Source of the DNA: an uncultured Candidatus Woesearchaeota archaeon
GTDB taxonomy: Archaea > Nanobdellota > Nanobdellia > Woesearchaeales > DSVV01
Assembly (NCBI GenBank): GCA_963717515.1
Contig: OY970338.1
Coordinates: 916,861 to 980,860, forward strand
Length of the DNA: 64,000 bases
Reading direction: 5' to 3'
Position 1 is the first letter of the stretch; the number at the start of each line of letters is the position of its first letter. Position numbers and translations under genes: made by a program. This document shows, piece by piece, positions 1 to 50,714 of the stretch. Under the pieces are notes generated by a model that did no database searches, was not told where the DNA came from, and saw only the letters and a program-made list of their open reading frames with translations.

Positions 1-262
1 AATCCACGAAATTCCTGATGATCTTGTAGTCCCTGATATAGTTGAAACCTTTATCTGTAAGCTCAAAATATTTTCTGCCGTTCTTCTGGACCTTCTCGAG
101 CATAAATCCCTTGGATATGAGCTCTGCCAGGTAATCAGTCATCATCTGGTGGGACAGGTTCGACTTGTAAAGGATGTGCGTGGGGTTGACAGCACCTCTC
201 TTTTCCTGGATAGCCTTTAGTATGTCATAAATAATCTCGAGGCGGTCACGTTTCCTGTTCAT
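1..262 (-). CDS. small winged-helix DNA-binding protein (HTH_45/ArsR-like); C-terminus cut by window edge
   Basis: Own reverse-strand translation gives MNRKRDRLEIIYDILKAIQEKRGAVNPTHILYKSNLSHQMMTDYLAELISKGFMLEKVQKNGRKYFELTDKGFNYIRDYKIIRNFVD. It is a clear paralog of 49060-49341 and 45789-46064. Its ATG overlaps the stop of the upstream membrane gene (ATGA). Confidence 0.75.
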   Translation of the reverse strand, partial: MNRKRDRLEIIYDILKAIQEKRGAVNPTHILYKSNLSHQMMTDYLAELISKGFMLEKVQKNGRKYFELTDKGFNYIRDYKIIRNFVD

Positions 263-921
263 TTTCGGAGCACCATGTAAAGGTTTGCGAGGATGAATAC
301 ATACGCCAACAGTTCAAGGACATGTCCCAGAACATAGAACAGCTGGTGGTTGACAGATATAAGGAAATGTATGGTTCCGAACAGCAGGAATATGAATGCC
401 ACTGCCACGAGGAGGGTCTGCGACTGCCTGCTCTTCCTGTAATTGCTGATATAGTACCATGAGATGAATATGAGGTATATCGATGACGCCAGATAAAATG
501 CATAGACCGGGTTTGTGCTCAGGAAGACGAGCAGCAGTGATGTTATCAACAGAAGCAAGAGCAGCTTTTTGTTCTCTATCCTGAAAGTTAGATAGACCAG
601 AAGGACAAGCCCGACTGTCATGAAGAACATGTGGACATACGCTGCGAGGGCATTGAAAAGCTCGATGGACTCGATATTGACAGCCCTGCATATCGACTCA
701 TTTGCATTTGAGATTATCAGGTAATTCAGGATCGACTCGATGATGTAGGATATGCCTATGGACAGGAATGCTGCTGAAAAAAGCTTGATCTGCCTCTGGT
801 CGGTCTTCCTGTAAATCTTCAGCGCGAATGATGCAATCAATATCGATATGACTGCAAAGATCATCTCAAGGGCAATATCATAGCCGAAGAACCACGAAGG
901 CGACAGGCAGGCATAGCTCAT
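259..921 (-). CDS. polytopic membrane protein (about 6-7 TM), unknown family; paralog of 49338-50000
   Basis: 220-aa ORF that is hydrophobic throughout. It aligns over its full length with the 49338-50000 product (blocks LSP.WF.GYD, FAVIS, ES.LNY, HFLISVNHQLFYV.GHVLE). Confidence 0.75.
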   Translation of the reverse strand: MSYACLSPSWFFGYDIALEMIFAVISILIASFALKIYRKTDQRQIKLFSAAFLSIGISYIIESILNYLIISNANESICRAVNIESIELFNALAAYVHMFFMTVGLVLLVYLTFRIENKKLLLLLLITSLLLVFLSTNPVYAFYLASSIYLIFISWYYISNYRKSRQSQTLLVAVAFIFLLFGTIHFLISVNHQLFYVLGHVLELLAYVFILANLYMVLRK

Positions 922-1080: not shown

Positions 1081-1100
1081 ATATGTTTTACATAACATAT
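1081..1100. promoter_or_regulatory. inverted repeat ATATGTT-N6-AACATAT overlapping the ArsR start codon; candidate autoregulatory operator
   Basis: The 7-bp arms are perfectly complementary. A TATA-like TTTATTTAA lies at 1071-1079, about 27 nt upstream of the ATG at 1099. Confidence 0.35.
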
Positions 1101-1407
1101 GATACAGGATGCACATGATATTTTCCTGACGACACTGGCAAACATGAACAGGCTCAGGATAATCAATGCCCTGAGGGAGAGGGAACTCAACGTGACAGAG
1201 ATCTCGAAATCAGCAGGGATGAACCAGACGACTGCATCACATAATCTCAAGAGATTGCTGGAAAGCGGTTTCGTCAATGCAAGACAGCAGGGACAGCACA
1301 GGTATTATGCCCTGAACAACAAGACCATCAGACCCCTGATGGACCTCATAGACAGGCACATAAGGACCAATTGCCAGCATCTGATAACAAAGCCAGGAGG
1401 TGGTTGA
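1099..1407 (+). CDS. ArsR/SmtB-family metalloregulator
   Basis: Contains LANMNRLRIINALRERELNVTEISKSAGMNQTTASHNLKRLLESGFV, the typical ArsR wHTH with the recognition helix QxxxSHHLxxL pattern. Confidence 0.85.
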   Translation: MIQDAHDIFLTTLANMNRLRIINALRERELNVTEISKSAGMNQTTASHNLKRLLESGFVNARQQGQHRYYALNNKTIRPLMDLIDRHIRTNCQHLITKPGGG

Positions 1408-1408
1408 G

Positions 1409-1633
1409 ATGTATTACTTCGGACACATGGGAATGGGCTATCTTGGATTCTTCGGATGGATCTGGATAATCATATTCTGGGCAGCGGTCATATGGCTGAT
1501 AGTATGGCTTGCGACAAGGCACAGGATGCCTGAGACGAGAAGCAGCCACATGCAGATTCTCAAAGACAGGTATGCCAAAGGCGAGCTGACAAAGAAGCAG
1601 TATGACGAGATGAAGGAGGACCTGTCAAAATGA
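1409..1633 (+). CDS. small membrane protein with C-terminal SHOCT domain
   Basis: One Trp-rich TM segment followed by ILKDRYAKGELTKKQYDEMKEDL (SHOCT signature). GGAGGTGG lies 6 nt upstream of the ATG at 1409. The track start at 1400 (GTG) is less likely. Confidence 0.75.
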   Translation: MYYFGHMGMGYLGFFGWIWIIIFWAAVIWLIVWLATRHRMPETRSSHMQILKDRYAKGELTKKQYDEMKEDLSK

Positions 1634-1706
1634 GGCAGGGTTCCTGAATGAATTATCAGGATTATATGAAAATGCTACAGATGGAAAATACTACAGGGGG
1701 ATTGAA

Positions 1707-2294
1707 ATGGAAAACGAAAAGCTGAAGATAATAGGGATAGCAGGAAGCCTAAGGAAAGGCTCATTCAACAGGTCTTTACTCAATGCCGCAAAGGAGGCAT
1801 GTCCAGAGGAGGCAGAGGTTGAGATAATCGAGATAGATTCCCTTCCTCTGTTCAACCAGGACCTGGAGAAGAACATGCCTAAAAACGTGATGGAATTCAA
1901 GGAGAAGGTCAAGAAGTCGGATGCAGTGCTGTTTGCGACACCTGAATACAATTACTCGGTTCCGGGGGTGCTGAAGAATGCGATTGACTGGCTCTCAAGG
2001 CCTTACGGAAACAACAGCCTTGAAGGCAAACCCACAGGCATAATGAGCGCTGCAATCGGGATGCTCGGCGGGGCGAGGGCGCAGTATCATCTGAGGCAGT
2101 CGATGGTGTTTCTCAACATGAGGCCCATGAACCTTCCGGAATTCATGGTGTCGTATGCCAAGGAAAAGATAGGTGAGGATGGGAAGATTAAAGATGAGAC
2201 GACAAGAGAAATGCTGGATAGGTTCATGGCAGCATTCGTGGAATGGGTAAAAGAACACAGGCTTCTGGAAAATGACATAAAAATCATGAGGTGA
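1707..2294 (+). CDS. NADPH-dependent FMN reductase (ChrR/YieF-like flavoprotein)
   Basis: N-terminal KIIGIAGSLRKGSFNRSLL and ATPEYNYSVPGVLKNAIDWLSRP are family signatures. Confidence 0.85.
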   Translation: MENEKLKIIGIAGSLRKGSFNRSLLNAAKEACPEEAEVEIIEIDSLPLFNQDLEKNMPKNVMEFKEKVKKSDAVLFATPEYNYSVPGVLKNAIDWLSRPYGNNSLEGKPTGIMSAAIGMLGGARAQYHLRQSMVFLNMRPMNLPEFMVSYAKEKIGEDGKIKDETTREMLDRFMAAFVEWVKEHRLLENDIKIMR

Positions 2295-2692
2295 TAAGGT
2301 TGAGAAAATATCTGCTGATCATAGGGATTTTGGCTGTGTTGTTCATCGCCGGCTGTGCAAACCAGCAAACATCGACGACAACGCAGACACAGGCAACAGG
2401 AAACCAGGGTTCAGACCAACCGATGATACCGGCACCGGGAAGCAAGACTGCGAAAGTGGCAATCCAGAACTTCGCGTATTCCCCTGCAGACATCACTGTT
2501 CAGAAAGGCACGACCGTGACTTGGACAAACCTCGACTCGGTGCAGCACACTGTGACATCTGACACAGGACTGTTCGATTCAGGCAGATTGTCCCAGGACC
2601 AGGTATGGAGCTACACATTCAATGACGCAGGGACATTCTCGTATCATTGCACTGTACATCCCAACATGAAAGGGACTGTGACTGTACAATAA
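2291..2692 (+). CDS. secreted or lipoprotein cupredoxin (plastocyanin/amicyanin-like blue copper protein)
   Basis: Signal peptide with lipobox-like LFIAGC. The C-terminal Cu-ligand pattern is H..(T).. then YHCTVHPNMKGTVTV (C-x2-H-x2-M). The start may be TTG at 2300, after GAGGTGA. Confidence 0.8.
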   Translation: MIRLRKYLLIIGILAVLFIAGCANQQTSTTTQTQATGNQGSDQPMIPAPGSKTAKVAIQNFAYSPADITVQKGTTVTWTNLDSVQHTVTSDTGLFDSGRLSQDQVWSYTFNDAGTFSYHCTVHPNMKGTVTVQ

Positions 2693-45105: not shown

Positions 45106-45792
45106 ATGGCCATGCAGCCCATATCCCATATTCCTGGTCCGGGATTCCTTCATTCTCCCGGTTTCGGATTTGAATTCGAGCTCATCTATACACTTGTGAT
45201 AATATTCTTCTGTTTTCTTGTATACTTCAGGACCAGGGAGATATATGAGCTGACCAAGTACAAAGGCATACATTACTTCCGAAACGCATTCCTCTTCTTC
45301 GGGCTTGCCTATGCTGCTAGGCTTTTCTTCCACCTCTTCCAGCTCACGACGATAGCGTTTGATTTCTTCTTACCAAGGAGGTTGATGTTTCCCCTGAGCA
45401 TAATCCCAGTCGGTTATCTAAGCACAATGGCGATATTCTACCTCGCATACAGCACATCATGGAAGAGGATGAAGTACAGGAATTTCATCATCATCGCCAA
45501 TATCGTTGCGCTTGCCATCTCAGCTATCGCATTCATGACACGTTCCCCTGAGATACTTTCACTGATACAGCTCGGGCTTCTGATAGTGACAATAATCATC
45601 GGCATAAAAGAGCACAGAAAAAAATTTTCACAGGCCCGGGCACTGTACTGGCTCATAACCATCTTCTGGCTCATCAACCTCTTCGTGCTCAGCCCGGGAT
45701 TCCATCCTTTCGAGATCAAGGCAGTGTTCCAGATAGTGTCGATAGGGGTGTTTGTCGCAATCTATTACAAAGTCAGGAAATGGGTAAAATGA
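45106..45792 (+). CDS. polytopic membrane protein, distant paralog of 259-921 and 49338-50000
   Basis: About 6-7 TM with the same length class. It is followed by an ATGA-coupled wHTH gene, exactly as in the other two cassettes. The start codon is uncertain. Confidence 0.65.
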   Translation: MAMQPISHIPGPGFLHSPGFGFEFELIYTLVIIFFCFLVYFRTREIYELTKYKGIHYFRNAFLFFGLAYAARLFFHLFQLTTIAFDFFLPRRLMFPLSIIPVGYLSTMAIFYLAYSTSWKRMKYRNFIIIANIVALAISAIAFMTRSPEILSLIQLGLLIVTIIIGIKEHRKKFSQARALYWLITIFWLINLFVLSPGFHPFEIKAVFQIVSIGVFVAIYYKVRKWVK

Positions 45793-46064
45793 CAAGGAAA
45801 AGGGACAGGCTTGAAGTCATCTATGATTTCGTGAAGATTGTGCAGGACAACAACAATTCCATCAGGCCGACTCCACTTCTCAGGAAATCAAACCTGTCAT
45901 CCCAGAGCTTTGCCGAATACCTGGGGGAGCTGGTCGAGAAGGGGTTTGTCAAGGAAGTGCCTGACCGGAAAGGGAAGAAATACATCACGCTGACAGACAA
46001 GGGGTTCCGTCTCATCGAGAGATACAGCCTGATTAAGGGATTCATCGACGAGTTCGAGCTTTGA
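45789..46064 (+). CDS. small winged-helix DNA-binding protein (HTH_45/ArsR-like), paralog of 49060-49341
   Basis: Contains MTRKRDRLEVIYDFVKIVQDNNNSIRPTPLLRKSNLSSQSFAEYLGELVEKGFV. The ATG at 45789 overlaps the upstream stop (ATGA). Confidence 0.75.
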   Translation: MTRKRDRLEVIYDFVKIVQDNNNSIRPTPLLRKSNLSSQSFAEYLGELVEKGFVKEVPDRKGKKYITLTDKGFRLIERYSLIKGFIDEFEL

Positions 46065-46530: not shown

Positions 46531-48420
46531 ATGGAATACAAAGGATTCACATTAGACAGGTTCCAGGAAGATTCGATAAAGGCTGTGGACAACGGCCATT
46601 CTGTTGTAGTCTCAGCACCGACAGGCTCAGGAAAGACCCTGATTGCCGACTACATAATCAACAAGTACCTCAAAGAGGGCATTAGGGTCATCTACACTGC
46701 GCCGATAAAGGCACTATCCAACCAGAAATACAAGGAATTCTCTACTGATTACGGCAAAGACAGCATAGGCCTCCTCACAGGCGACATCGTCATCAACCCA
46801 GGCGCTCCGGTGCTGATAATGACGACAGAAATCTACAGGAACATGGCCCTCATCAACGATCCGATGCTCGATACTGTGAAATATGTCGTGTTCGACGAGA
46901 TCCACTTCATCAACGACATCGAGAGGGGGTATGTCTGGGAAGAGTCCATCATTTTCTCAAAAGAGCACGTGAGGTTCCTCTGCCTCTCAGCGACAATCCC
47001 CAATGCAGATGAGTTTGCCAGGTGGATAAAGAAGACCAAGAAGCATCCTGTGGAGGTTGTCAGGTATGACAAGAGGCATGTGCCCCTGTTCAGGTATTTC
47101 TATGACACAGAGCTCGGCATATGCACGCTGGAGGACATAAAAGATGTCAACGACATCCCTGAGTACCACAGGGGGAAAACGAGGAGACAGAGGATAAAGC
47201 CCCCTGATCATGTTGAGCTTGTCAGGGAGATAAAGGATAAGCTGCCGTGTTTCTTCTTCTATTTCTCAAGGATGGGCTGCCAGGATTCGGCGATTGAGCT
47301 TGCAAGGGCAAGGCTTTTCAGGATAGACCCTGCAATAGGACCTATTGTCAGGAAGAAGCTGGAGAATTCGGCGCCTGAGATAAGGAACCTGAAATCCACA
47401 AGGCTCCTTCGGGAGACACTGCCGTACGGCATCGCATTCCATCATGCAGGGCTCATCCCGCTCATAAAGGAGCTTGTCGAGGACCTGTTTTCACAAGGGC
47501 TTATCAAGGTCCTCTACACTACAGAGACATTCGCAGTGGGAATCAACATGCCTGCAAAGACTGTCGCTTTCCGCTCGCTTCGCAAGTTTGATGGCGCGAA
47601 TTTCCGGTTCCTCAATTCAAAGGAATATTTCCAGATTGCAGGAAGGGCAGGCAGGCGGGGAATAGACAAGGAAGGTTTTGTATATTCGATGATAGACAGG
47701 CGGGATTTTGACTACGCAAAGCTCAAGAAGATGACTGACAAGGATGTCGAACCAATCAGGTCGCAGTTCAGGCTCTCTGTCAACACAGTGCTGAACATTA
47801 TAATGCAGCACAGCAGCGAAGAGATAGACAGGATACTGAGGATGAATTTTTTCACATTCCAGAAAGGCTCGTACAGCGCAGTCAAGAGATCCTTTGACAG
47901 CTCAAGAAAGAAGCTCATCAGGCTGGATTACATCAGGGACGGCAGGTTGACTGAGAAGGGTGAGTTCTCCTCGAGGATCTATGCTGATGAGATAATAATA
48001 GGGGAGGTCTTCGGGACAGATTTCTATACCAGCCTCAATGAGTACCAGATGCTTCTAATCATAGCATGCCTCGCATACGAGTCCAGGGAAAAGACAAGGT
48101 TCTACAGCAGGTATCCGTCTGAATCCCTGAGCGACCTCAAGAAGAAGATTCATGCATCACCCAATATCGGCAGGGAGACACGGTTTCGGAACCTTAACAA
48201 GATTACTGCTCTCGTAGACCCGGCCTATCACGGCAAGGACATATTCGAGCTGATGAAGAACACGAACCTTGTCGAAGGCGACATAATCAGGCTCTTCCGC
48301 CAGATTCTCGACAGGCTGGCGCAGATTAGGCACGCGACAGGGGACGAGAGGCTCAAGCAGATGGCAGCAAGCTGCCAGGAAGTGATGATCGCTTCGCTTG
48401 CAGACGTAGATACGATATGA
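46531..48420 (+). CDS. Ski2/HelY-like DExH-box RNA helicase with a DSHCT-like C-terminus
   Basis: Motif I APTGSGKT, motif II FDEIH, SAT, a QIAGRAGRRG-type motif VI, and a C-terminal LVEGDIIRLFRQILDRL (DSHCT-like). Confidence 0.85.
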   Translation: MEYKGFTLDRFQEDSIKAVDNGHSVVVSAPTGSGKTLIADYIINKYLKEGIRVIYTAPIKALSNQKYKEFSTDYGKDSIGLLTGDIVINPGAPVLIMTTEIYRNMALINDPMLDTVKYVVFDEIHFINDIERGYVWEESIIFSKEHVRFLCLSATIPNADEFARWIKKTKKHPVEVVRYDKRHVPLFRYFYDTELGICTLEDIKDVNDIPEYHRGKTRRQRIKPPDHVELVREIKDKLPCFFFYFSRMGCQDSAIELARARLFRIDPAIGPIVRKKLENSAPEIRNLKSTRLLRETLPYGIAFHHAGLIPLIKELVEDLFSQGLIKVLYTTETFAVGINMPAKTVAFRSLRKFDGANFRFLNSKEYFQIAGRAGRRGIDKEGFVYSMIDRRDFDYAKLKKMTDKDVEPIRSQFRLSVNTVLNIIMQHSSEEIDRILRMNFFTFQKGSYSAVKRSFDSSRKKLIRLDYIRDGRLTEKGEFSSRIYADEIIIGEVFGTDFYTSLNEYQMLLIIACLAYESREKTRFYSRYPSESLSDLKKKIHASPNIGRETRFRNLNKITALVDPAYHGKDIFELMKNTNLVEGDIIRLFRQILDRLAQIRHATGDERLKQMAASCQEVMIASLADVDTI

Positions 48421-48431
48421 GAACAAGACCC

Positions 48432-48992
48432 TTATTTCTTGCCTTTGACTGAATCCCTTATGCTCTTGATGATGTCCATTATCATCCCTCTGAACTCATC
48501 GCCAATGTCATGCCAGCCGGGATCAGCATGTTCCCTTCCAGCCTTCTCTTTCGGTCTTCTTGTCTTGCGATACCTTGGTGTGGGTATGAAGACCTTGACA
48601 AACCCGACAATGAGAACTATGAAGAACACGAGCACTGCAAAGAAATATCTCAGGCTGATGAGCGGGTAAAGGTCTGCCCCTGTGACGCCCTGTATCATGA
48701 GAAACAGCCTGAACAGGAATATCACCAACAGGAAACCCCCTACTGCATTGAACAGGGGGTAGGGAAGGTTGAACGGGAGGAACAGGACATAGAACAGCTC
48801 TGCTATGAAAAAAAAGATGGAAAACGCGATGATGAGCCCCAGATTGCTGTTCAGGAATGAAAGAACCGCAATCACAGACTTGTTAGAGGAATTGCCGAGG
48901 AAGATGTCTGCAAGGGCAAGCATTACCAGGAACAGCAGGAACCCGCCTATGTTCGAGAGAACCACCCACAGGACGCTTTTCTTCCTTCTCAT
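48432..48992 (-). CDS. integral membrane protein with a basic C-terminal tail
   Basis: 186 aa with about 5 TM helices. Confidence 0.6.
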   Translation of the reverse strand: MRRKKSVLWVVLSNIGGFLLFLVMLALADIFLGNSSNKSVIAVLSFLNSNLGLIIAFSIFFFIAELFYVLFLPFNLPYPLFNAVGGFLLVIFLFRLFLMIQGVTGADLYPLISLRYFFAVLVFFIVLIVGFVKVFIPTPRYRKTRRPKEKAGREHADPGWHDIGDEFRGMIMDIIKSIRDSVKGKK

Positions 48993-49059: not shown

Positions 49060-49341
49060 TCACTCATCAAGGCCGTAGCTCTCGATGAATGACCTTATGA
49101 CATCGAAATCCTCCAGATAGCTGTGCCCTTTCACAGTCAATGCATATGACCTGTTGTCCTTCTTGTCCGTCTCCTCTTCGATGAAGCCCTTGTCGATGAG
49201 GTCTGAAAGATATTCCCTGAGCATCTGCGATGAGAGGTTCGACCTGTAGAGTATGTGTGTCGGCCTCGCATTTCCACGCCTGTCCTGGACTGCTTTCAGT
49301 ATATCATGGATTATCTCAATCCTCTCCCTTTTTCTGGTCAT
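49060..49341 (-). CDS. small winged-helix DNA-binding protein (HTH_45/ArsR-like)
   Basis: Contains MTRKRERIEIIHDILKAVQDRRGNARPTHILYRSNLSSQMLREYLSDLIDKGFI. The ATG overlaps the stop of 49338-50000 (ATGA). Confidence 0.8.
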   Translation of the reverse strand: MTRKRERIEIIHDILKAVQDRRGNARPTHILYRSNLSSQMLREYLSDLIDKGFIEEETDKKDNRSYALTVKGHSYLEDFDVIRSFIESYGLDE

Positions 49342-50000
49342 TGTCTTTGCACCAGGTAAAAATTGATCAGGATGAACGCATAAGCGACAAACTCAAGCAC
49401 ATGACCAATCACATAGAACAGCTGGTGATTGACAGATATCAGGAAATGAAAGTTCCCGATAAGCAGGAATATGAATGCCAGGGCAACCAGCAATGTCTTT
49501 GCCTGCTTGTTCCTGAGGTAATTGAGGATGAAATGCCAGGATATGAAGGCAAGAAATATTGTAGATACCATGTAGAACATGTACAATGTGTCCTCATTGA
49601 AAAGAATTGCAGCAAGAGAGATTATGATGAGGAACCAGAGAAGCCTGAGCCTCCTGTCCTTGAGCGTCGCATATAGAAGGATTGACAGGCCGATCGTCAT
49701 GAACACTATATGGGTCAGGATCCCGATGTATTCAAAACCTGCGACTGATGTAAGTTTCTCGACAACAGGCATCTGCCCGTTGAGATACGTCACTATGAAA
49801 TAATTCAGGACAGACTCGATAAAATACGAAAGCGATATCAGCAGGAATGAGAACCCGAAAAGCCTTACCAGCCTCTGAGATGTCTTCTTGTAAATCCTGA
49901 ATGCAAACAGTGAGACGACTAATGATATCACTGCGAATGCCAGCTCAAAACCGGCATCATACCCATAGAACCATTCAGGCGAAAGATAGGAATATATCAT
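49338..50000 (-). CDS. polytopic membrane protein, close paralog of 259-921
   Basis: 220 aa, the same length as the 259-921 product, and collinear with it. Confidence 0.75.
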   Translation of the reverse strand: MIYSYLSPEWFYGYDAGFELAFAVISLVVSLFAFRIYKKTSQRLVRLFGFSFLLISLSYFIESVLNYFIVTYLNGQMPVVEKLTSVAGFEYIGILTHIVFMTIGLSILLYATLKDRRLRLLWFLIIISLAAILFNEDTLYMFYMVSTIFLAFISWHFILNYLRNKQAKTLLVALAFIFLLIGNFHFLISVNHQLFYVIGHVLEFVAYAFILINFYLVQRQ

Positions 50001-50167
50001 GTGACAGGGGCTTGAAAATTGATTTTTAAATTTTATGGAAGACTAATCAGATTAATCCTTCTTTTAGTATATAAATGAGCAGGGCATTCCACAACCAAGC
50101 AAAGAAGGAAGTCGACGGAACCTTCAAAGGATTCCCGAAGATTTCCTAAAAACGGAGGTGCAAAAGA

Positions 50168-50281
50168 ATGGAAAATGTGGAAAAGATCAGGAGGATGCTC
50201 GGCCTGGACATGATAGCCCAGGTCTATCCCAGCGAGGGAGATCGGACCCTGATAATAAGGAGAGAGGAGGTGGGAATATGA
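50168..50281 (+). CDS. possible micro-ORF, 37 aa
   Basis: MENVEKIRRMLGLDMIAQVYPSEGDRTLIIRREEVGI is preceded by GGAGGTG. Its stop overlaps the next ATG (ATGA). The alternative is the 109-aa track ORF from 50158, which has a low-complexity N-terminus. Confidence 0.3.
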   Translation: MENVEKIRRMLGLDMIAQVYPSEGDRTLIIRREEVGI

Positions 50282-50487
50282 GCCCGATGGATAGCATGAA
50301 GAAGATGCTGATGCTCAAGGAGATGAGGGCATCTGTCTGGGAGCAGCACAGGGAAGTGGCTGAGCTCAAGGAGCTGGAAGAAGAGATGAAAGACAACGAA
50401 CATATCATGATAGGGGATATGTTCAGGTGGCAGAAAAGCAAGCAGGGCAATTTCCTTATAATGGAAAACCAGCCCGCATCAATGTGA
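50278..50487 (+). CDS. small Met/Glu-rich protein, 69 aa
   Basis: MSPMDSMKKMLMLKEMRASVWEQHREVAELKELEEEMKDNEH.. is preceded by GGAGGTGGG. Confidence 0.45.
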   Translation: MSPMDSMKKMLMLKEMRASVWEQHREVAELKELEEEMKDNEHIMIGDMFRWQKSKQGNFLIMENQPASM

Positions 50488-50498
50488 GGTGATGGAAG

Positions 50499-50714
50499 AT
50501 GAAAGAAAAGATGGCAATGATCGGAATCATGGCAGCGCTCATCATCAGCATGATCGGCGCAGTGTATGCGCACGGCACAAGTGATGAGGATTATGGATAC
50601 GGAATGATGGACACCTACGGGATGATGGGAAGCCAGGTATATAATGATATGGACGATATGCAGAACGACATGATGACAGTGCCTGTTCCAGGCACTTGTG
50701 ATAATTTCTTTTAA
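50499..50714 (+). CDS. small secreted Met/Asp/Tyr/Gly-rich peptide, 71 aa
   Basis: Signal-like MKEKMAMIGIMAALIISMIGAVYA, then HGTSDEDYGYGMMDTYGMMGSQVYNDMDDMQNDMM. GAGGTGATGG lies upstream. Confidence 0.5.
   Translation: MKEKMAMIGIMAALIISMIGAVYAHGTSDEDYGYGMMDTYGMMGSQVYNDMDDMQNDMMTVPVPGTCDNFF

Follow-up and report, generated by a model that had tools for sequence, protein, structure and literature searches.

A conserved gene pair for a seven-helix membrane protein and an HTH_45/Sso10a-family protein in Woesearchaeota: a plausible sensor-regulator module with a copper-linked subfamily

Introduction

DPANN archaea have very small genomes with few recognisable regulators, and most of them live attached to a host; to our knowledge, how their cells sense their surroundings is largely unknown. 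A gene pair in the genome of an uncultured Candidatus Woesearchaeota archaeon raises the question of whether a membrane protein and a small DNA-binding protein encoded side by side could serve this purpose. The pair lies on contig OY970338.1 (assembly GCA_963717515.1) within a stretch of 64,000 nucleotides (forward-strand positions 916,861 to 980,860; hereafter the window, to which coordinates refer unless given as genome positions), and consists of a gene for a polytopic membrane protein followed by an overlapping gene for a small winged helix-turn-helix (wHTH) protein. An initial annotation, made from the letters alone, described three copies of this cassette and proposed a family of membrane-tethered or membrane-sensing transcription switches. 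We find that the module is real, ancient and widely conserved, that its DNA-binding half belongs to a known family and its membrane half is new, and that a direct pairing of membrane sensor and regulator, with one copper-linked subfamily, is a plausible account of it.

Results and discussion

Five copies of the pair in one genome

The three pairs found in the window comprise the following genes.

49338-50000, minus strand: copy C membrane gene, an open reading frame (ORF) for 220 amino acids with seven transmembrane (TM) helices
49060-49341, minus strand: copy C wHTH gene, 93 amino acids, HTH_45/Sso10a family
259-921, minus strand: copy A membrane gene, 220 amino acids, Cys/His-triad subtype
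1-262, minus strand: copy A wHTH gene, truncated by the window start and complete at 92 amino acids in the genome
45106-45792, plus strand: copy B membrane gene, 228 amino acids, divergent subtype without the His triad
45789-46064, plus strand: copy B wHTH gene, 91 amino acids, ATGA overlap

At all three junctions the ATG of the wHTH gene overlaps the TGA stop codon of the membrane gene, giving ATGA. The membrane proteins of copies C and A are collinear and 50% identical, with the block HFLISVNHQLFYV(I/L)GHVLE in common; that of copy B shares only ~16-23% identity with copy C, is recognised by the family profile (E = 9.7e-38) and has its own set of 119 homologues. The wHTH proteins of copies A and B are 53% and 46% identical to that of copy C. 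The ORF positions, the ATGA junctions and the collinearity of copies A and C given in the initial annotation match our ORF calls exactly, the greater divergence that it ascribed to copy B is borne out by these identities, and its count of three copies holds for the window and is corrected to five for the genome.

The whole genome, a single contig of 1.84 Mb, carries these three pairs and two others, copies D and E, at genome positions 1507212-1508217 (with a 52-nt spacer) and 370930-371881 (with a 26-nt overlap). Every HTH_45 match above the Pfam cut-off in this genome (5/5) sits directly after a membrane-family gene, and the recurrence of the pair is far beyond chance. Five pairs are also present in a sister genome (G001). 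Since the family is usually single-copy in the genomes sampled, the five copies represent an expansion of paralogues, which are old (identity <= 50%) and each have orthologues in sister genomes.

An essentially obligate and widespread pairing

The pairing is essentially obligate. In 23 of 23 loci from 40 relatives the wHTH gene lies directly downstream of the membrane gene on the same strand; in 47 loci from named metagenome-assembled genomes (MAGs), 47 of the 48 membrane genes likewise have a wHTH gene immediately after them on their own strand, the sole exception lying at a contig end; and in 41 genomes searched with the family profile all 45 membrane matches are followed in this way by an HTH_45 match. 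These neighbourhood surveys support the earlier description of the module as conserved and amplified, and extend its conservation well beyond this genome. Six strong HTH_45 genes had no detected partner, and five of these have a divergent, copy B-like gene for a seven-helix protein (220-236 amino acids) directly upstream. Among 46 junctions with homology-corrected start codons, 31 are the 4-nt ATGA overlap, 10 are longer overlaps and five are gaps of 5-23 nt. The pairwise distances of the two proteins are correlated (r = 0.74, a value reached by 0 of 999 permutations), which indicates that the pairs evolve as units and does not in itself prove contact between the partners; the membrane protein diverges faster than the wHTH protein (0.66 vs 0.50).

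The membrane family comprises 1134 clusters at 50% identity (E <= 0.001), nearly all of them stand-alone proteins of ~220 amino acids. Of 401 genomes sampled across the phylum, 265 carry it, usually in one copy; they represent 190 of 281 genera and include genomes as small as 0.5-0.7 Mb. The named relatives belong almost entirely to MAGs of Woesearchaeota, Nanoarchaeota or Nanobdellota, which marks the source as a DPANN archaeon. A few copies, always as intact pairs, lie on MAGs labelled Methanoperedens, Altiarchaeota or Nitrosarchaeum, and their presence there may reflect binning errors or transfer. Several MAGs titled 'uncultured Methanosarcinales archaeon' (those of loci L024, L025, L030 and others) contain contigs with up to 85% protein identity to this genome, and the organism labels of those records look wrong. 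We found no published description of the module in the literature on HTH_45, DUF7521 or Sso10a membrane partners.

The small protein is an HTH_45/Sso10a-family member

All three wHTH proteins of the window exceed the curated gathering threshold (GA, 25.5 bits) of the Pfam family HTH_45 (PF14947), with 71.6 bits (E = 5.5e-20) for copy C, 64.7 bits (E = 8.1e-18) for copy A and 48.1 bits (E = 1.2e-12) for copy B. Copies C and A (67.5 and 63.9 bits) also pass the cut-off of 60 bits of the NCBIfam family Sso10a_fam (NF053610), below which copy B falls (46.1 bits). The structure of Sso10a (PDB 1r7j) is matched by the copy C protein at E = 2.5e-5 as a single sequence and at 4.4e-9 with the family profile, and Sso10a-2 (PDB 4hw0) is matched by the profile at 8.6e-7. 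Judged by these matches, the small protein belongs to the HTH_45/Sso10a family, an affiliation that had been missed in the initial annotation.

In an AlphaFold2 model of the orthologue at locus L044 the protein adopts the winged-helix topology a1-b1-a2-a3-b2-b3-a4 (pLDDT, the predicted local distance difference test, 79-95), with helix 230-243, a bridge at 248, helices 250-257 and 261-273, strands 277-281 and 287-291 and helix 293-311, so that the last helix, a4, is ~19 residues long. The family alignment displays a conserved basic N-terminus (RKRxR) and a conserved SYGL-like C-terminal tail, and no conserved Cys or His was found in it. Architectural DNA binding of the Sso10a type would be largely independent of sequence. 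Sso10a has the topology a1-b1-a2-a3-b2-b3-a4, and its dimers are held together by a long antiparallel coiled coil of helix a4; the proteins of this group, described as abundant and architectural, can bend, bridge and stiffen DNA (PMC4941522). The likeness to Sso10a/Sul10a of the Sulfolobales therefore covers the family-level sequence match, the basic N-terminus and the modelled topology, whereas the last helix here is shorter than the extended coiled-coil helix of Sso10a, the SYGL tail is a further difference, and the gene is always coupled to that of a seven-helix protein, a membrane partner being nowhere mentioned in PMC4941522.

The membrane protein has seven helices and a conserved outer pocket

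AlphaFold2 predicts a seven-helix bundle for the copy C membrane protein (pLDDT 89.9; predicted template modelling score, pTM, 0.87). Lys and Arg together average 2.5-3.4 residues in loops 1, 3 and 5 and the C-terminal tail, whereas the N-terminus and loops 4 and 6 average fewer than 0.5, and from this positive-inside distribution the N-terminus is placed outside and the C-terminus inside. The near-universal residues (the N-terminal motif SPxWF(F/Y)GYD, E19, Y59, N66, G104, A175-F176, F186, Y196, G199 and Y207) are concentrated in the outer half of the bundle, and the conserved residues of a polar pocket are contributed by TM1 (D15 and E19), TM2 (N66) and TM7 (Y196). Copies A and C belong to a large subfamily with four further conserved residues: C78, located in outer loop 2, and the three histidines H185, H192 and H200, grouped around outer loop 6. 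Depending on which residue is counted, this Cys/His-triad signature occurs in 29-38 of the 66 loci.

No curated Pfam or NCBIfam threshold is passed by the membrane protein. Its nearest match, DUF7521 (PF24365), stays below the GA of 27 bits in copy C (25.1 bits) and copy A (24.7 bits), gives no match for copy B, and spans residues 20-91 only, i.e. the first three helices; for MASE3 (PF17159) the highest value among the window's copies, that of copy A, is 21.6 bits, below the GA of 31. Copy C has sub-threshold matches to DUF7521, DUF5985 and MASE3, with DUF5985, MASE3 and 7TMR-DISM all weaker than DUF7521. Across 54 family members, 33 match DUF7521, 18 MASE3 and 17 DUF5985 at E < 0.01, the best E-values being 2.8e-7 for DUF7521 and 1.3e-5 for MASE3; 7TMR-DISM_7TM is matched in three of the 54, and a few database relatives carry a precomputed PF24365 match. 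The protein sequence is thus weakly reminiscent of DUF7521 and MASE3, a resemblance missing from the initial annotation.

The earlier statement that the membrane component could not be matched to a described family stands, as searches with hidden Markov models gave nothing above threshold, and no PDB relatives were retrieved by sequence or profile search. By sequence and by modelled fold the membrane protein is not a recognisable transporter or enzyme; a match to a well-characterised family of either kind, which the initial annotation had named as a reason to abandon the idea of a switch, did not appear. Kinship with rhodopsins and G-protein-coupled receptors was considered and rejected: Foldseek searches against the PDB yielded only generic bundles of these two kinds (E >= 0.013; TM-scores 0.22-0.56) with root-mean-square deviations of 6-12 Å for nearly all of these matches, and a conserved Lys in TM7, the retinal-binding feature, is absent from the family.

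One metagenome protein of the copy B type, P0486 (314 amino acids), carries a 90-residue Met/Gln/Pro-rich N-terminal extension that is predicted to be extracellular and is reminiscent of Met-rich copper-binding tails; it is a single example. P0486 was also considered as a natural fusion of the two halves of the module and was rejected, the outer extension being its only addition to the membrane protein.

One subfamily lies beside copper-efflux genes

Neighbouring genes were clustered for 70 loci, and a tree was made of 66 membrane proteins. Recurrent neighbours are almost always divergent from the membrane gene. A copper group, a monophyletic set of ~10 loci, and with it some scattered other loci face a divergent unit encoding a SHOCT small membrane protein, a membrane-anchored protein of 276-291 amino acids, a CopZ-like heavy-metal-associated (HMA) protein, a CopA-like HMA P-type ATPase and a further HMA protein, and no other regulator is present. 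On the tree, the neighbours that are heavy-metal ATPases, HMA proteins or SHOCT proteins are confined to the branch dominated by the Cys/His-triad signature. A single flagged locus, L004 (copy E), lies elsewhere, and the P-type ATPase beside it is of another, non-HMA kind. This copper-efflux context of one subfamily had gone unrecorded in the initial annotation.

Copy E itself lies 125 nt downstream, on the same strand, of the gene for that 857-residue P-type ATPase (genome positions 368232-370805, plus strand). Judged by its N-terminus, the ATPase seems closer to the Ca/Mg (type II) class than to the heavy-metal one, which hints at a different cation for the copy E paralogue.

At three loci (copy A, L026 and L060) an ArsR-type regulator gene stands with a SHOCT gene beside the cassette. 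The unit at copy A is as follows.

1099-2692, plus strand: copy A divergent unit, comprising ArsR-type (HTH_5), SHOCT, a 195-aa gene and cupredoxin (Cupredoxin_1/Copper-bind), by Pfam

The 195-aa gene encodes a putative NADPH-FMN reductase, so called in the initial annotation.

Promoters and candidate operators

Upstream of copy C the following elements were distinguished (BRE, transcription factor B recognition element).

50023-50039, minus strand: copy C proximal BRE/TATA, TCCATAAAATTTAAAAA, ending 22 nt before the ATG
50044-50054, no strand assigned: copy C candidate operator palindrome, TAATCTGATTA, between two TATA-like boxes
50068-50075, no strand assigned: distal TATA-like box, TTTATATA, ~38-40 nt upstream of the proximal TATA

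The position of the proximal BRE/TATA, 22 nt before the ATG, implies a leaderless mRNA. The 17-mer TCCATAAAATTTAAAAA is shared as an exact string only by copies C and D. The string CCATAAAATTTAAAAA, whose only two occurrences in the genome precede copies C and D, was considered as an operator and rejected; when the genome was scanned with a weight matrix, this consensus turned up 22-26 nt ahead of numerous unrelated genes, and it therefore represents the general BRE/TATA of the lineage. The promoter consensus of the lineage, TCCA(T/A)AAnnTTTA(A/T)AAA, ends 22-26 nt before the start codons of many genes, a position which implies that first genes are mostly leaderless; downstream genes use GGTG-type Shine-Dalgarno sites.

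The palindrome TAATCTGATTA has no second occurrence in the 1.84-Mb genome, and a wider regulon is therefore not apparent. Its ATCTGA core recurs in the corresponding position in 16 of 66 related loci vs 3.1 expected. A second TATA-like box at a spacing of ~38-40 nt, probably the divergent promoter, is present in most of these 66 loci, and CACCTC, the reverse complement of a divergent gene's Shine-Dalgarno sequence, is enriched just beyond it (15/66 loci vs 2.4 expected); at copy C this distal box is the probable promoter of a divergent unit of micro-genes. Between the two boxes most loci have a conserved element, which outside the copper clade, as at copy C, is a palindrome centred on ATCTGA.

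In the copper clade this element is the inverted repeat TCTaCAG-N5-CTGcAGA; its right arm extends into the BRE. Of its cells, 84% are complementary vs 25-51% when the partner columns are slid, and paired changes were seen at position 5 (C-G to G-C in 4 of 12 sequences; CG/GC 4:4) and position 7 (G-C to A-T in one), giving a covariation score that was reached by 7 of 500 shuffles. The repeat looks like a candidate operator for a dimeric wHTH protein. In the genome studied here the pattern has four scattered matches with no link to the cassettes. The shared upstream operator motifs envisaged in the initial annotation are accordingly found in part: inverted repeats or palindromes do lie on cassette promoters, and the 17-mer common to two copies is the general promoter.

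A kinase-free membrane sensor as the preferred reading

Our preferred reading, which we hold with moderate confidence, is that the cassette is a kinase-free membrane sensor controlling a locally acting wHTH repressor. A wHTH dimer would bind the inverted repeat or palindrome at the BRE/TATA of its own leaderless operon and at the back-to-back divergent promoter, and would repress both. The outward-open polar pocket of the membrane protein would bind an external ligand and, according to the occupancy of that pocket, the membrane protein would hold or release the wHTH protein at its basic cytoplasmic loops, so that an external signal would reach the promoter with neither phosphorylation nor proteolysis involved. 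For the Cys/His-triad subfamily the signal sensed in the pocket (C78, H185, H192 and H200) would most likely be copper or a similar soft metal, to judge from these residues and from the metal-related neighbours, which include the ArsR, SHOCT and cupredoxin genes facing copy A and the gene for a secreted Met-rich peptide facing copy C, and the pair would control the adjacent SHOCT, CopZ and CopA efflux genes; other paralogues would sense other cues.

The arrangement of the genes fits such a device. Translational coupling to the membrane gene means that the wHTH protein is made in fixed proportion to its partner, and KdpDE and BlaR1-BlaI are examples of known pairs in which a sensor gene is likewise followed by an overlapping regulator gene. 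Of the two parts of the original proposal, membrane sensing is supported by the gene order, the coupling, the correlated distances (r = 0.74) and the operator-like repeats, whereas literal tethering is not, no natural fusion having been found.

The alternative that survives best, which we consider rather unlikely, is that the seven-helix protein is an effector, i.e. a working metal or cation permease, a channel, or a sequestering or reducing protein, and that the wHTH protein is a mere autoregulator which senses the signal itself or through another factor, without functional contact with the membrane protein. The acidic and polar outward pocket with its Cys/His triad would suit a cation-binding transporter, the position beside CopA and CopZ genes and that of copy E 125 nt after a P-type ATPase gene would fit a component of a resistance island, and promoter-overlapping repeats would suit any local repressor. 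Four considerations nevertheless favour a sensor over an effector with its repressor. The first is the invariable sensor-first order with translational coupling: regulators of effector operons usually come first or are divergent and are needed in far smaller amounts, whereas here the regulator is second and coupled. The second is that the membrane part is the faster-diverging one and has been multiplied, each of the five divergent paralogues having its own wHTH partner, which is typical of sensors. The third is that the wHTH protein lacks ligand-binding residues, with no conserved metal-binding Cys or His. The fourth is that the membrane protein lacks a transporter or enzyme signature, no such family having been matched by sequence or fold.

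Several points weigh against the sensor reading. The interaction of the two partners, the nature of the ligand, the binding of the wHTH protein to DNA and the sign of the regulation are only inferred. Sso10a itself is described as an architectural chromatin protein and not as a specific regulator (PMC4941522). A natural fusion of the membrane and wHTH proteins was not found among the relatives and homologue clusters. At locus L044, where the two genes are in frame and 6 nt apart, a read-through fusion was modelled with the TGA read as Gly and with five wHTH rows; its pTM was 0.78 vs 0.87 for the membrane part alone, and although the former is higher than expected for two independent domains, it is ambiguous, because TM7 continues as a helix through the three-residue linker, and we give it no weight. 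The ArsR-type metal regulator at copy A, L026 and L060 could do the sensing there, the copper context is seen in only ~13-16 of the 70 loci, and the widespread single-copy subtype has no consistent neighbours. As to the operators, the upstream 17-mer common to two copies is only the general promoter of the lineage, the palindrome of copy C does not exceed chance expectation when only the window is considered, the copper-clade repeat has only modest backing from covariation, and that from related sequences, and this repeat is absent at copy A.

The remaining explanations fit the data poorly. In one of them, which we regard as improbable, the wHTH protein is architectural and the seven-helix protein tethers DNA to the membrane for anchoring, segregation or DNA handling at the host contact. 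That copies A and C pass the Sso10a_fam cut-off, that Sso10a proteins bend, bridge and stiffen DNA (PMC4941522) and that the pair is retained in very small DPANN genomes would all be in line with nucleoid organisation; however, five divergent pairs with subfamily-specific neighbours (copper efflux, micro-genes, a secreted repeat protein) argue for local roles, the conserved inverted repeats on cassette promoters point to sequence-specific binding, and the C-terminal helix of ~19 residues is shorter than the dimerisation helix of Sso10a. Least credible of all is a selfish or addiction-type module (toxin-antitoxin-like or cargo of a mobile element) with no regulatory role for the host. Small overlapping two-gene cassettes in several copies per genome, and copies in MAGs labelled Methanoperedens, Altiarchaeota and Nitrosarchaeum, would speak for it, but the paralogues are old (identity <= 50%) with orthologues in sister genomes, 190 of the 281 genera sampled have the family, mostly as a single copy, integrases, transposases or repeats were not seen around the copies, and the odd taxon labels may be binning errors.

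Comparison with known systems

The closest neighbours by sequence are the DUF7521 proteins of Halobacteria. Haloarchaeal DUF7521 loci were gathered by BLAST against plasmids, and in 4 of 4 plasmid loci a wHTH gene lies directly upstream of the DUF7521 gene, overlapping it or 1 nt apart. On pHV3 of Haloferax volcanii (L071, 18141-18825) the gene for a 123-residue HTH_20 regulator is followed after 1 nt by that for a 103-residue DUF7521 protein (41 bits), and the same arrangement occurs, at 40-46% identity, on plasmids of Haloarcula, Halobellus and Haloferax mediterranei (L082, L083 and L084). According to a preprint, in which it is named HVO_B0192/B0193, the Haloferax pair is co-regulated and ranks with the genes most up-regulated when a quorum-sensing regulator is mutated (10.1101/2025.11.10.687552). 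The two systems resemble each other in that the first three helices of the DPANN protein match DUF7521 and that both are paired with a wHTH gene; they differ in size (~100 amino acids and three helices vs 220-228 amino acids and seven helices here), in gene order (wHTH first in haloarchaea, second in DPANN) and in the regulator, which in Haloferax is HTH_20/ArsR-like (tested against Pfam at one locus) and not HTH_45.

The MASE3 and 7TMR-DISM modules of kinases and cyclases in bacteria and archaea are likewise polytopic helical input modules, with weak full-length similarity to the membrane protein. They are, however, N-terminal domains fused to their output, whereas the protein described here stands alone at ~220 amino acids beside a separate wHTH protein, and the scores are below threshold. 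Neither protein of the pair has a HisKA/HATPase or receiver match in Pfam or NCBIfam, as would be expected of a two-component system.

In the BlaR1-BlaI and MecR1-MecI systems of Firmicutes, a membrane sensor gene is likewise followed by that of a small winged-helix repressor in the same operon. Repressors of the BlaI/MecI type bind palindromes over their own and a divergent promoter, and members of the CopY type control copper efflux. BlaR1 signals by means of an HExxH zinc-protease domain and an extracellular penicillin-binding domain; here, in contrast, both domains are lacking, the HExxH motif is found in 0 of 66 membrane proteins, and there is no match to Peptidase_M56 or Penicillinase_R. 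The proposed logic, stoichiometric capture of a regulator at the membrane, would by analogy be that of repressor sequestration as in Mlc-PtsG, MalT-MalK, PutA and the anti-sigma factors, although these are not homologous and the membrane partner there either functions as a transporter or enzyme in its own right or is an anti-sigma factor of the single-pass type.

Implications for sensing in small archaeal genomes

If the membrane protein gates the wHTH protein, the pair would be a minimal, two-protein route from the cell exterior to a promoter, the copper-linked subfamily with its defined 19-bp site (TCTACAG-N5-CTGCAGA) would be a tractable test case, and a function could be given to the DUF7521-wHTH pairs of model haloarchaea, for which genetics are available. 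Tentatively, it may also be the founding example of a broad archaeal class in which a stand-alone polytopic receptor directly gates a small wHTH protein without kinase, protease or second messenger. Such a class, which we think possible rather than probable, would unite the DPANN pairs of seven-helix and HTH_45 proteins with the haloarchaeal DUF7521/wHTH pairs, the paralogues being tuned to different cues, copper among them. Were this so, the DPANN module may be the main transmembrane signalling device of genomes down to 0.5 Mb. If the membrane protein is instead a new metal-handling protein, it would add a component to archaeal copper resistance.

Other genes around the pairs

Copies C and B each have a divergent partner of their own.

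50168-50714, plus strand: copy C divergent micro-gene unit, three coupled genes for 37, 69 and 71 amino acids
44267-44893, minus strand: copy B divergent partner, a signal-anchored protein of 208 amino acids with repeated DYDAW-like motifs

The middle micro-gene of copy C encodes a 69-residue protein with the motif LKEMRASVWE, and the 71-residue product is a secreted peptide rich in Met, Asp and Tyr, a composition that suggests metal binding. The micro-genes are conserved at loci L005 and L024. A small cytoplasmic protein with the pattern [KR][DE]x[RK]xxxWE is encoded beside the cassette, mostly divergently, at 18 loci including copy C, a count in which some contigs appear twice.

Directly downstream of copy C, at 48432-48992 on the minus strand, lies a gene for a polytopic membrane protein of 186 amino acids without a family match. 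It recurs only in the closest relatives (three loci) and so probably does not belong to the module. A DEAD/Ski2-like helicase of 629 amino acids is encoded in the interval from copy B to copy C (46531-48420, plus strand); similar helicases adjoin the cassette at three other loci (e.g. L037 and L038), a proximity that may be coincidence or synteny.

The divergent partner of copy B has no Pfam family. Look-alikes of ~170-210 amino acids with DYDAW/NFEAW repeats are encoded divergently to B-type pairs at L074 (1791-2300) and L075 (184-747).

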